Part shown: piece by piece, positions 20,374-27,676 of the stretch
How positions within the stretch are numbered: the stretch's first letter is position 1
Layout: each line of letters opens with the position of its first letter
Program-made: the position numbers and the translations under genes
Notes under the pieces: model-generated
The model's input: only the letters and a program-made list of their open reading frames with translations
What the model was told of the DNA's origin: nothing
Databases searched by the model: none
From: a virus
Lineage: Duplodnaviria > Heunggongvirae > Uroviricota > Caudoviricetes
Length of the DNA: 38,076 nt
Direction: 5' to 3' (one strand)
IMG/VR virus record: IMGVR_UViG_2690316068_000004
Location: 1-38,076 of that record

Positions 20374-24054
<3,681 letters not shown>

Positions 24055-24080
<26 letters not shown>

Positions 24081-24600
24081 TCAGCAACCCCGGTATCAGT
24101 TCATCCAGCGCGGCTGCTTTGTTCATGGCTTTGATGATATCCCGTTTCAGGAAATCAACATGTCGGTTTTCCAGTTCCGGAAAACGCCGCTGTACCGAGA
24201 GAGGGATCCCGTCAAGAATACTGGCAATTTCACCTGCGATCCGTGACAGCACGAAAGTACAGAATGCGGTTTCCACCACTTCTGCGGAGTCTCTGGCATT
24301 CTTCAGCTCCTGGGCGTCAGCCTGCGCACGCGTAAGTCGATGGCGTTCGTACTCAATAGTCCCAGGCTGGAGATCTGCCTCGCTGGCAGCCCTGTAATCC
24401 TCAACCTCTTTACGGAGTTTTTCATTTTCGATATCAGCTTCCCTCTGCGCATACCACTGAATTGCCATGGCGGTATCAAATACAGATTCAACGCCCTTAC
24501 CACCTCCGGAGACGCAAGGGAGTCCCTGAGACTGCCAGCGTTCAATCGTTCGCGGATCCACGTTGAAAATTTCGGCAAGTTTCTTTTTATTAACCTTCAT
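24055..24600 (-). CDS. nu1: Terminase small subunit Nu1, N-terminal DNA-binding region divergent from lambda
   Basis: 181 aa; residues ~50-181 match lambda Nu1 as recalled, residues 1-50 differ. Confidence 0.9.
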
Positions 24601-24787
24601 GAAACAGTCTCACAATAAATACAGGGTCCGACATGAAAGTGCCCGAAAATGACTTTTTTAGGCGTTTTCATGTCGGACCTTTACGGATTCGATATTAGAA
24701 AAAACAAATAGTTATGTTCGAGAAGTACCGACATGATTTTCCCCGGAAAATTTTCATAAATAGCGAAAACCCGCGAGGTCGCCGCCC
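24601..24787 (-). promoter_or_regulatory. cos site: cosN cohesive end (aggtcgccgccc at 24776..24787, i.e. GGGCGGCGACCT on minus) and cosB with three CCGACATGA-type repeats
   Basis: Minus-strand GGGCGGCGACCTCGCGGGTTTTCGCTATTTATGAAAATTTTCCGG matches the lambda left end; repeats at 24627..24640, 24667..24679 (inverted) and 24726..24736. Confidence 0.8.
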
Positions 24788-24935
24788 CGTAACCTCTTGG
24801 ATCGACGGAAAGGACCCGAAAACGAGAATAATTATCACTTACAGCAAGAATCGAATCTGATCTATTATGGTGCTTGCTATTACGTGCCGGCACAAGTGCG
24901 TCGTTTACCGTCATTTCACACAGAGGCATCATCAA

Positions 24936-25187
24936 ATGAAAATCAGAAATATTCTCGCTATCTCCCTTGCGACATCATCCTTCAGTTGCCTGGCATTTAA
25001 ATCCTCGCCCAATGTGCTACCAGGACCAACGAATCAACTAACTGCGGTAGAAAGTAAAATTATCGGACATTTTTATGCCCCACACAGTACATTACCCGGA
25101 ACAACCATCACAGGGACATGTGACGCCTCCCCCGTCCCGGGATGCACCTGTCCGTTTTGTACTATGCTGCGTAGCCAAAACCGATAA
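24936..25187 (+). CDS. Hypothetical small secreted protein (signal-peptide-like N-terminus, Cys-rich C-terminus)
   Basis: Internal start MKIRNILAISLATSSFSCLA within ORF 24867..25187; start not verified. Confidence 0.35.
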   Translation: MKIRNILAISLATSSFSCLAFKSSPNVLPGPTNQLTAVESKIIGHFYAPHSTLPGTTITGTCDASPVPGCTCPFCTMLRSQNR

Positions 25188-25550
25188 CATCCGCATTTAC
25201 CTGGTATTCCATGATGAGTTCACGCAGCGACTGATAGAGGAAGGAAAGATGGTTAGTAAAAGCAAGGCGCATTGCCGCCGCATGCTGCAGGCATTGCAAC
25301 AGACGAGAGCAGGTATTTTTGACCAGTTGGAAAACTGCCAGCATACTTTGCCCGAGTATATCGCCATCTCATCGGAAACCAGTGCAACTCTTATTCATCG
25401 GGTTCCACCAGAGAAAAAGAAGAAATGAACAGTGAGGCGTTGTGTGGCATACAACGCCTTCTTCCATCATTCCTCGTCAGCCATGACAAAAATATAACCG
25501 CTGGCTCTTTCATTTTTCTCCTGCTTCCAGCCCCTCTCTACCTGGAAGCA

Positions 25551-25880
25551 TCAAGGACGTGACGGCGTAAAGATAAATTGTCTCTTCACTCCCTGACAGG
25601 GGCGATTCTTTTCAAATCGCCATTTCGCCATGGCCTTCACCACTTCATCACGAAACAAATTATGAGGCTCTGAGCGGAGAAAAACGATCCGTGTCACAGT
25701 CCCATCAGCACCAATATCGAACTTAACCTCAACCAGCCCCTTGATATAATTTGCTGCAGCATATTCCGGATATCGTGGATACACCGTCACTAATTGCCGG
25801 GGCTCATCAGCTTTTTGCTGCGAGCATCCCACTGCCAGGACAGATAACAGAAAAAGTAGTAAAAGGCGTCTTTTCATTTT
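25551..25880 (-). CDS. Putative lipoprotein with TonB C-terminal-like domain
   Basis: Internal start MKRRLLLLFLLSVLAVGC (lipobox LAVGC) followed by a YP...G.V.V.F.I...G.V TonB-C-like pattern. Confidence 0.55.
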   Translation of the reverse strand, partial: KMKRRLLLLFLLSVLAVGCSQQKADEPRQLVTVYPRYPEYAAANYIKGLVEVKFDIGADGTVTRIVFLRSEPHNLFRDEVVKAMAKWRFEKNRPCQGVKRQFIFTPSRP

Positions 25881-26358
25881 TATTCCTACGGGTCTTATTC
25901 TGACAATATATCCTGTGTTCCAGACTGCCACATCACCACATCCTGTGCCATTATCTGACTCACATTACATACATCGCATCGGGATACAGTAGTAGCACTT
26001 TCTGTAATACAGCTTCCTGTTTCTTCCACCATCGCACCGGGATAAACCCGCGAATCATTAACGCGGTAAAAACCCGGTGTGCATCGTTTTTAATTATTCC
26101 CGCACACTCACGCAGAAGGAATTCCCCCGTCGGGCTACGGTCATGGTTAATGCGGGAATACGGCGACGATACAGCGCAGCTAAAAGGGTAATGGACGGAT
26201 AGACCGGTTTATTTCATTCCACAGGATTCTGAGTGTCCCCAACTTCCTCCAATAGTCTGAGCCCACCTGTGTAGTTTTAATTTTCATCAATCCATTTAAC
26301 TATCGTTTAATTGTTGTCACATAGGATTCTGCCGTTTTTAACAATGCAGGATAATAAG

Positions 26359-26652
26359 ATGAAAAAAATGTTGTTTTCTGCCGCTCTGGCAATGCTTATT
26401 ACAGGATGTGCTCAACAGACGTTTACTGTTGGAAACAAACCTACAGCAGTAACACCAAAGGAAACCATCACCCATCATTTCTTCGTTTCGGGAATTGGGC
26501 AGAAGAAAACTGTCGATGCAGCAAAAATTTGTGGTGGTGCAGAAAATGTTGTTAAAACAGAAACCCAGCAAACATTCGTAAATGGATTGCTCGGTTTTAT
26601 TACTTTAGGCATTTATACTCCGCTGGAAGCGCGTGTGTATTGCTCACAATAA
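26359..26652 (+). CDS. bor: Bor lipoprotein (serum-resistance moron)
   Basis: MKKMLFSAALAMLITGCAQQTFTV... matches lambda Bor; opposite strand to the lysis genes as in lambda. Confidence 0.9.
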   Translation: MKKMLFSAALAMLITGCAQQTFTVGNKPTAVTPKETITHHFFVSGIGQKKTVDAAKICGGAENVVKTETQQTFVNGLLGFITLGIYTPLEARVYCSQ

Positions 26653-26683: not shown

Positions 26684-27145
26684 CTATCTGCACTGCTCAT
26701 TAATATACTTCTGGGTTCCTTCCAGTTGTTTTTGCATAGTGATCAGCCTCTCTCTGAGGGTGAAATAATCCCGTTCAGCGGTGTCTGCCAGTCGGGGGGA
26801 GGCTGCATTATCCACGCCGGAGGCGGTGGTGGCTTCACGCACTGACTGACAGACTGCTTTGATGTGCAACCGACGACGACCAGCGGCAACATCATCACGT
26901 AGAGCATCATTTTCAGCTTTCGCATCAGCTAACTCCTTCGTGTATTTTGCATCGAGCGCAGCAACATCACGCTGACGCATCTGCATGTCAGTAATTGCCG
27001 CGTTCGCCAGCTTCAGTTCTCTGGCATTTTTGTCGCGCTGGGCTTTGTAGGTAATGGCGTTATCACGATAATGATTAACAGCCCATGACATGCAGACGAT
27101 GATGCAGATGAGCAGAGCGGAGATAATCGCGGCTACTCTTCTCAC
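26684..27145 (-). CDS. Rz: Inner-membrane spanin Rz, GTG start
   Basis: (V)[44 protein letters not shown]... matches lambda Rz; GTG at 27143..27145 preceded by GGGGGA. Confidence 0.85.
26743..26925 (-). CDS. Rz1: Outer-membrane lipoprotein spanin Rz1, embedded in Rz in the +1 frame
   Basis: 60 aa [24 protein letters not shown]...[15 protein letters not shown], lipobox and proline-rich as in lambda Rz1. Confidence 0.85.
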
Positions 27146-27676
27146 TGATCTATCCCCCAACAGGCTAAATGCGCTTTCCTGGTCACGACGAATAACCTGT
27201 CCGTAGCAGTTATTTGAACGTGTGCGGCAATCACGCCCACCGTCCTTAATCCACCAGCGAATCGACTCACAGGCACCTTTACGATCACCGGCATTAAGCC
27301 GCTTATAAAACGTCGACGGGAAACACTTACCGGGGCCAATGTTATAGGGACAAAATGACGCGATACCTGCTTTTTGTGGCTCGGTCAGTGGAACTTTTAT
27401 ATTACGCTCCACCCATGCCAGCGCCTTATCCCGCTCAATGGCGTTAACCTGGGCGCATTTTTCCTTCGACAGTTTCATGCCCGGAATAACAGGTTTACCC
27501 TCCACCACAGTGGCACCCCGGCAAATGGTCCATATGCCGGAACCATCGCGGTATGCCGTTGTGTGGTTACCCTCTTTTTCGTCCAGAAACTGGTCAAGTA
27601 TCTGAGGAGCAGACGCGCCTGCGGCAATCAGCGCCAGAACAGCAGCCGACAGGCCGTATCTGATTTTTACGTTCAT
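27142..27676 (-). pseudogene. R: Phage lysozyme (GH24-type, signal-anchor N-terminus), apparently frameshifted near the 3' end so the ORF reads through into Rz
   Basis: The 330-aa ORF is lysozyme (aa 1-177) plus Rz (aa 178-330) with no stop; the expected C-terminus ...ACWGIDQ and TGA at 27142..27144 lie in the +1 frame; the span is 535 nt, one more than 178 codons. Confidence 0.7.

Follow-up and report, generated by a model that had tools for sequence, protein, structure and literature searches.

Among described systems, the C-terminal domain of Escherichia coli TonB (residues ~150-239; structures 1u07, 1xx3, 2gsk and 2grx) pairs with the Ton box of its transporters through the beta-3 strand (PMC11658791). 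According to the account in PMC9841981, periplasmic TonB fragments (Howard et al. 2001, PMID 11566987) inhibit TonB-dependent transport, and Ton-box pentapeptides (Tuckman and Osburne 1992) lower phi80 infection and colicin killing; as described there, both are soluble laboratory constructs that act in the periplasm as energy-uncoupled competitors. Small phage lipoproteins of the outer membrane, Llp of T5 and Cor of phi80 and N15, act from the periplasmic side on one TonB-dependent transporter, FhuA, to which Llp binds according to PMC9586334 and bioRxiv 10.64898/2026.03.26.714494. The Bor protein of lambda and the Iss protein of E. coli are also outer-membrane lipoproteins, and their gene lies in the classical moron slot from the lysis cassette to cos. 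Here, this slot was analyzed in a lambdoid, phage-21-like E. coli prophage, whose sequence (IMG/VR record IMGVR_UViG_2690316068_000004, positions 1 to 38,076) is referred to as the window, that is, the whole stretch of 38,076 nucleotides. An earlier note, made from the sequence alone, had placed a small secreted Cys-rich protein and a lipoprotein with a TonB C-terminal-like domain at positions 24936-25880. The region between cos and the lysis genes carries two independent accessory genes, which are inherited within the phage-21-type right end. One encodes an energy-uncoupled TonB receptor-binding domain that is predicted to be lipid-anchored and is selectively maintained, and the other, orf83, encodes a small exported Cys-rich protein.

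The block from cos to the lysis genes matches that of classical phage 21 (OL657228), the proteins of which are 100% identical to the TonB-domain protein and orf83 of the window; both are also found in the isolated phages PhiR57_1, PhiR47_2, PhiR63_2, ev017 and Perceval. The 1761 bp at 24600-26360 are 100% identical in strain Q5 and 99.5% identical in strain 536, and a survey of 5426 complete E. coli genomes found at least 80% of this stretch in 1208 of them (~22%). The block belongs to a founding model phage, and the E. coli genomes that carry it include those of the well-studied extraintestinal pathogenic strains 536 and F11. The lipoprotein gene and orf83 are already catalogued in databases.

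The lipoprotein gene starts with an ATG at 25877, with AGGA just upstream, in agreement with the Prokaryotic Genome Annotation Pipeline (PGAP) and the phage 21 annotation; the end coordinate in the earlier note, 25880, lay 3 nt too far. For both proteins, signal peptides and lipoboxes were called by sequence reading together with invariance across homologues. The N-terminus of the lipoprotein, MKRRLLLLFLLSVLAVG before C18, consists of a basic n-region, a hydrophobic core and the lipobox LAVG-C with Ser at +2, and matches the pattern of signal peptidase II substrates (MKRR-LLLLFLLSVLAVG-C). All members of the close family keep the lipobox Cys, and the Ser at +2 predicts sorting to the outer membrane by the +2 rule. 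A linker of ~10 residues after Cys18 leads into a single TonB C-terminal domain (residues ~27-104), which scores above the cut-offs of both Pfam TonB_C (PF03544; 7.4e-13, 49.2 bits, cut-off 24.6) and TIGR01352 (1.8e-12, 47.4 bits, cut-off 27.1). The best match to a solved structure is the C-terminal domain of E. coli TonB (1u07; 1.4e-14, TonB residues 151-230), with which the lipoprotein shares its fold at 38-40% identity. The AlphaFold2 model has a mean predicted local distance difference test score (pLDDT) of 88 overall and 97-98 over the domain. A Foldseek search with this model gave template modeling (TM) scores of 0.91-0.92 and root-mean-square deviations (rmsd) of 0.9-1.5 Å to 1u07, 2gsk_B and 2grx_C; on TonB bound to BtuB (2gsk_B) or FhuA (2grx_C) the rmsd is 0.9-1.0 Å, whereas TolA domains score far worse than TonB domains. 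The TonB C-terminal-like domain of the earlier note is therefore a genuine one.

The binding architecture of TonB is also retained. In the alignment with TonB 151-230, the YP, aromatic and Gly positions show little or no variation among members of the lipoprotein family; the pairs (TonB residue first) are Y163-P164 and Y36-P37, F180 and F53, G186 and G59, F202 and F75, W213 and W86, Y215 and F88, and F230 and F103. The beta-3 edge strand, the partner of the Ton box in TonB, is kept as well. In contrast to TonB, a lipoprotein signal peptide replaces the membrane anchor and the proline-rich spacer, and the protein stops at the position of TonB T235, so that the last four residues are absent. Since both the membrane anchor and the proline-rich rod are missing, the lipoprotein is unable to transmit energy. 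The best score against the full-length TonB equivalogs of NCBIfam (PRK10819) is 69.2 bits, far under the cut-off of 315, which together with the missing anchor and rod identifies the protein as a TonB domain and not as a TonB.

Older annotations call the protein a "partial" or "truncated" TonB-like protein, and truncated copies do occur in some genomes, as would be expected of a functionless, decaying fragment of a captured host tonB gene. Such an origin is hardly credible. The ratio of nonsynonymous to synonymous substitution rates (dN/dS) against a 72%-identical variant is 0.13, which indicates purifying selection and contradicts decay, and 75 near-identical copies of the gene contain nine synonymous and four nonsynonymous polymorphisms. 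Variants with 67-100% identity, found in E. coli prophages and Stx1a phages, all keep a length of 108 amino acids; a lipoprotein signal has been gained, with an invariant lipobox. Beyond these close variants, an exhaustive profile-free search revealed a wider family of 105-135 amino acids with the same architecture at 31-48% identity, most members of which have a lipobox and the remainder a signal peptide.

In every phage context examined, comprising at least five divergent lineages, the lysis cassette is followed immediately by the lipoprotein gene, which shares its orientation. Phage 21 shows this order; in the phages carrying the 72%-identical variant, Rz and Nu1 flank the gene and bor is missing; in L144, holin, GH19 endolysin and DUF2514 genes precede it; it is again first in the prophages L152 and L170; and it directly follows the lysis genes in Klebsiella phage ST13-OXA48phi12.4 and the Serratia prophage L093. 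This constant position would suit a late accessory of lysis or egress, made from the late transcript together with holin, endolysin and spanins, that tunes rupture of the outer membrane, for example by binding peptidoglycan or an outer-membrane protein. PHROG 1267, which the lipoprotein matches, is moreover labeled "Rz-like spanin". [quoted passage not shown] As for an outer-membrane spanin, the window encodes Rz1 separately at 26743-26925, and Rz is present both here and in phage 21. The slot between lysis and terminase genes is a general insertion site for morons, in which bor and a gene for Ivy (inhibitor of vertebrate lysozyme) are also found, and the PHROG label looks like annotation carry-over. 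Relatives of the lipoprotein in addition occur at chromosomal sites in Klebsiella, Raoultella, Serratia, Erwinia and Pantoea, in neighborhoods with neither phage nor lysis genes, from which it follows that the protein is independent of the lysis context and works in ordinary envelope physiology. Both the existence of such relatives and the presence of separate, intact spanins speak against a purely lytic function, and a role as lysis accessory appears distinctly unlikely. The label of PHROG 1267, which belongs to the lysis category and is at odds with the TonB fold, is spreading into phage annotations such as PA2 gp73.

The chromosomal proteins consist of a lipobox and a single TonB_C domain in 105-135 amino acids; they are nearer to the phage lipoprotein than TonB is, and differ from it by their context outside prophages. 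Their retention in several enterobacterial genera suggests a housekeeping role, for instance as a positive or regulatory partner of TonB-dependent transporters that holds or pre-organizes Ton boxes or N-terminal signaling domains and alters gating or signaling, and at two Klebsiella loci open reading frames (ORFs) resembling TonB-dependent receptors, judged by eye and unconfirmed, lie a few kb away. No conserved neighborhood with transporters was established, though, and there is no known way for a domain devoid of energy to open a transporter, which makes a regulatory partnership of this kind quite improbable.

The reading favored here, albeit tentatively and by analogy with the TonB fragments and pentapeptides, is that the lipoprotein is an outer-membrane-tethered TonB decoy, which would occupy Ton boxes and dampen the entry of TonB-dependent phages and colicins. 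Unlike those competitors as described in PMC9841981, which are soluble and made in the laboratory, the protein of the window is natural, phage-borne and predicted to be lipid-anchored. The tethered domain would adjoin the periplasmic face of FhuA, FepA, BtuB, CirA and other transporters, where beta-strand addition could let it bind either Ton boxes that are exposed or the TonB boxes with which colicins arrive. As it would be uncoupled from ExbB/ExbD, the decoy would be dominant-negative, and the outcome would be less TonB-dependent entry of phages (T1, phi80), colicins and microcins, at the price of some siderophore and vitamin B12 uptake. This would represent a moron for superinfection exclusion or colicin tolerance aimed at the shared energy-coupling step instead of a single receptor. 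The likeness to Llp and Cor, which are also small phage lipoproteins of the outer membrane with periplasmic-side action on a TonB-dependent transporter, would be one of strategy: the target of a TonB-domain decoy would be the Ton box, which all such transporters have in common, whereas Llp and Cor are specific for FhuA. No relationship to Llp or Cor was detected by PHROG, Pfam or PADLOC for either the lipoprotein or orf83, with PHROG matches limited to 1267 and 34172, and neither gene matched a defense system in PADLOC. The favored reading is supported by the identity and fold of the domain, the retained TonB residues, the export signal and purifying selection, and also by neighbors that are morons of envelope defense, namely Bor/Iss in the window and Ivy in L152.

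The same neighbors are compatible with a moron that serves the envelope or virulence and leaves TonB-dependent import alone, such as a tether between outer membrane and peptidoglycan or a factor of host interaction like Bor/Iss or Lom. The lipoprotein gene adjoins iss/bor in the window and is followed by the Ivy gene in L152, and avian and extraintestinal pathogenic isolates often carry it (such as 536, F11 and avian pathogenic E. coli, APEC, strains). [quoted passage not shown] Against such a moron stand the Ton-box-binding architecture, which is fully kept and conserved, and the lack of any sign of surface exposure in the protein; on balance, a function of this type seems unlikely. Bor and Iss themselves, despite sharing the slot and the location in the outer membrane, differ from the lipoprotein in fold, family and orientation. 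The Ivy homologue (L152:4449-4871, + strand; Pfam 7e-19), a periplasmic defense moron, lies after the lipoprotein gene.

Several points weigh against the TonB decoy. The position of TonB Q160 is occupied by Y or L and that of R166 by Y in the lipoprotein; we take both to be receptor-contact residues in the complex structures. The orientation with the late operon, directly behind the lysis cassette in at least five lineages, fits late expression equally. Inhibiting TonB constitutively would come at a cost, and yet 1208 of the E. coli genomes counted above carry the block. No published study of a phage TonB-domain lipoprotein was found in the literature. A scan for sigma-70 promoters revealed nothing convincing for the lipoprotein gene, orf83 or bor/iss; as it was silent even for bor/iss, it is uninformative. 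Furthermore, the receptor of phage 21 is LamB (PMC11336670) and the C-terminus of J in the window is of the lambda type. The phage's own receptor is therefore not TonB-dependent, and the gene does not protect it; blocking of the phage's own receptor was ruled out on these two grounds. An extension of the decoy to enterobacterial temperate phages at large, in which one Ton-box-capping gene would act with a broad spectrum against many TonB-dependent phages, colicins and microcins and so shield the lysogen or the infected cell, is somewhat more doubtful. If the decoy is real, the TonB system, a pursued antibiotic target, would have a natural inhibitor in the lipoprotein, which would also influence the choice of phages, colicins and siderophore-drug conjugates that are effective against strains carrying it; the broad form of the decoy would add a new category to superinfection exclusion and colicin tolerance, and would explain what the small TonB_C lipoproteins of the chromosomal family do.

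The second accessory gene, orf83, codes for a protein whose N-terminus, MKIRNILAISLATSSFSCLA followed by FK, resembles a signal peptide, and which has four Cys in its C-terminal third. A protein search revealed 22 homologues, which come from E. coli, Citrobacter, Klebsiella and Salmonella, share 55-100% identity with it and are 82-84 amino acids long save for longer start calls and fragments. Synonymous sites are saturated, with proportions of synonymous and nonsynonymous differences (pS and pN) of 0.65-0.85 and 0.17-0.22, respectively. This comparative evidence indicates that orf83 is a real gene. Invariant residues are F16, C18, A20, F21, C70, C72 and C75, the last three of which lie in a conserved C-terminal motif, GTCDASPVPGC[ST]CPFCTMLR. 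The stretch S-F-[S/G]-C18, with S or G always at -1, fits the PROSITE lipobox pattern PS51257 (SSFS-C18 in the window). The protein is thus possibly lipidated at C18, the alternative being signal peptidase I cleavage after C-L-A20; if lipidated, the Leu at +2 would predict sorting to the outer membrane. Searches of Pfam, NCBIfam, PHROGs, PADLOC and PDB gave no match to orf83, and as the AlphaFold2 model has a pLDDT of only 50, no fold is assignable.

The contexts of orf83 are diverse. It lies beside cos with a DUF3950 gene and no TonB-domain gene at the locus L134, beside bor and an omptin gene in a Salmonella salamae island, and as a remnant beside icd in Citrobacter koseri; a homologue accompanies a cos remnant at the locus L129 (Klebsiella quasipneumoniae CP024459, a 211-kb replicon that is probably a plasmid). 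Conversely, the lipoprotein gene occurs without orf83 in L076 and L083, and lambda has neither, so that both genes vary in presence, at a module boundary, among phages that are alike in other respects, as morons do. Judging from these contexts, orf83 moves as its own unit. It would most simply be another envelope moron, and may, by analogy with Llp or Cor, encode a small lipoprotein that blocks a receptor. In L129 the homologue adjoins genes for a cobW-family GTPase and a FUR-family regulator; this may be a coincidence, and the CxCxxC-like motif of orf83 makes the neighborhood worth noting. PGAP and the curated phage 21 record omit orf83, while some depositors list it as hypothetical; a conserved exported protein is therefore absent from RefSeq and from the record of the model phage.

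Of the earlier claims, the presence of both ORFs where they had been placed, of bor/iss in the block and of a small secreted Cys-rich protein was borne out: bor/iss by its match to Lambda_Bor, the last by the signal-like N-terminus, the four Cys and homologues in four genera. Homology searches found relatives of the lipoprotein at 31-100% and of orf83 at 55-100% identity. The lipoprotein had been regarded as the more credible of the two; this ranking did not hold, the comparative evidence for orf83 from homologues and pS/pN being equally strong. "Lysogenic-conversion cargo" is no more than a plausible description of the block. Since the lipoprotein gene has the orientation of the late operon and lies directly behind the lysis genes, late expression is at least as likely as expression from the prophage.

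The features of the region are listed in Table 1.

Table 1. Features from the terminase genes to the lysis cassette of the window
Feature	Position	Strand	Remark
Terminase large subunit gene	22407-24080	-	
Nu1	24055-24600	-	
Cohesive-end sequence AGGTCGCCGCCC of cos	24776-24787		Read in the sequence; coordinates mapped via the phage 21 record
cosQ	24811-24817		Mapped via the phage 21 record
Fur-box-like AT-rich palindrome CGAGAATAATTATCA	24823-24837		Beside cosQ, at the right end of cos
orf83	24936-25187	+	83 amino acids, exported Cys-rich protein
PGAP "hypothetical protein" WP_000881610	25162-25344	-	60 amino acids, probably spurious
orf59	25249-25428	+	Probable small basic cytoplasmic protein, PHROG 4843
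GC-rich hairpin, candidate two-way terminator	25434-25460		Between the convergent orf83/orf59 and TonB_C genes
TonB-domain lipoprotein gene	25551-25877	-	108 amino acids
Structured RNA element	26035-26172	-	In the sense of the late operon
iss/bor outer-membrane lipoprotein gene	26359-26652	+	Pfam Lambda_Bor, 1.1e-30
Rz, Rz1, R and holin genes	from 26684	-	Lysis cassette

The iss/bor gene, named "increased serum survival lipoprotein Iss" by PGAP, is on the strand opposite to the late genes and contains 13 synonymous against four nonsynonymous polymorphisms. Two further frames have to be considered between orf83 and the lipoprotein gene (25188-25550). The PGAP coding sequence (CDS) of 60 amino acids, which is also in the phage 21 record, shows no synonymous against seven nonsynonymous polymorphisms, is cut short by a stop allele (E46*) in 22 of the 75 related sequences, and is frameshifted in L074 and L075; it is probably an annotation artifact that overlaps the plus-strand orf59, and hence an annotated frame that is apparently no gene. 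The start of orf59 is preceded by a strong ribosome-binding site (GAGGAAGGAAAG-ATG), its product matches PHROG 4843 (3e-46), and a full-length homologue with 36% identity (pairwise E 2e-11) occupies this niche in another lineage of prophages (L152:4953-5120). On the other hand, a large protein search returned near-identical matches only, the polymorphisms are two synonymous against seven nonsynonymous, and an allele with a 1-nt insertion, which shifts the frame, is common. Taken together, orf59 is probably a gene, with weak support.

The GC-rich hairpin follows the lipoprotein gene, as in self-contained morons. Its stem has 12 bp on the plus strand; on the minus strand, a U-rich stretch comes after a stem of 9 bp. 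With z-scores of -1.75 and -2.35, the hairpin may terminate the orf83/orf59 unit and the lipoprotein gene alike.

The AT-rich palindrome is separated from cosQ by 5 bp and precedes orf83 by 113 nt. It matches the Fur-box core TGATAATnATTATCA at 13 of 15 positions and the 19-mer Fur consensus at 15 of 19, a score attained in one of 200 shuffles, and is a perfect match to TGATAATnATTATCA (15/15) in lambda (L138 37-51), L076, L083 and L134. A Fur operator specific for orf83 was considered and rejected, as the perfect palindrome lies beside cosQ in lambda and in prophages without orf83. The palindrome is therefore a conserved feature of the cos side, and could be a Fur operator for whichever moron adjoins cos or a part of cos function. 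No Fur-like site was found upstream of the lipoprotein gene. In lambda, an ORF that starts with MSTKNRTRRTTTRNIRFPNQ (YlcI/DUF3950-like) begins at about position 199 of L138 (right end, reverse strand) and lies near cos on the other strand from the late genes; the feature table of NC_001416 does not list it. Between the Nu1 start and cosN of the window, a strong inverted repeat, GGTCCGACATGAAA...TTTCATGTCGGACC, at 24620-24684 presumably lies in the cosB region, and an Rfam scan of this palindrome yielded only sub-threshold microRNA noise. The prophage small RNA svsR of NC-SV (PMC12803456), considered as a candidate, maps to the cI gene, outside the block from cos to the lysis genes.

In the lysis cassette, the frames of endolysin (R) and Rz are fused into a single ORF of 330 amino acids (26684-27676, minus strand). 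Rz is frameshifted in the window prophage, as PGAP also flags for Rz of the identical strain Q5, beside an intact Rz1, and the window prophage may be spanin-defective.

Just 3' of the lysis cassette lies the structured RNA element, which directly follows Rz where bor is absent. Its RNAalifold consensus comprises a compound hairpin of ~92 nt and a short GC hairpin, and it is conserved in lambda (NC_001416 46865-46974), Stx phages, Salmonella phage SPN3UB and many prophages. Across 26 distinct sequences, 95.5% of cells are paired, compared with 31-63% when partners are slid, and in six pairs both partners have changed, where shuffles gave 1.2±1.0 such pairs (0/500). Frequent G-U pairs fit the minus strand only, and because the element tolerates 1-nt indels, it is not coding. 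It has no Rfam match, so that a covarying RNA structure in the late operon of lambda is left without an Rfam family. In PA2, a CDS for a 67-amino-acid "Rz-like spanin" is annotated over the element and is probably spurious. At 26124, a loop of the element contains an additional C in the window and two relatives, which the remaining 43 of the 46 related sequences do not have.

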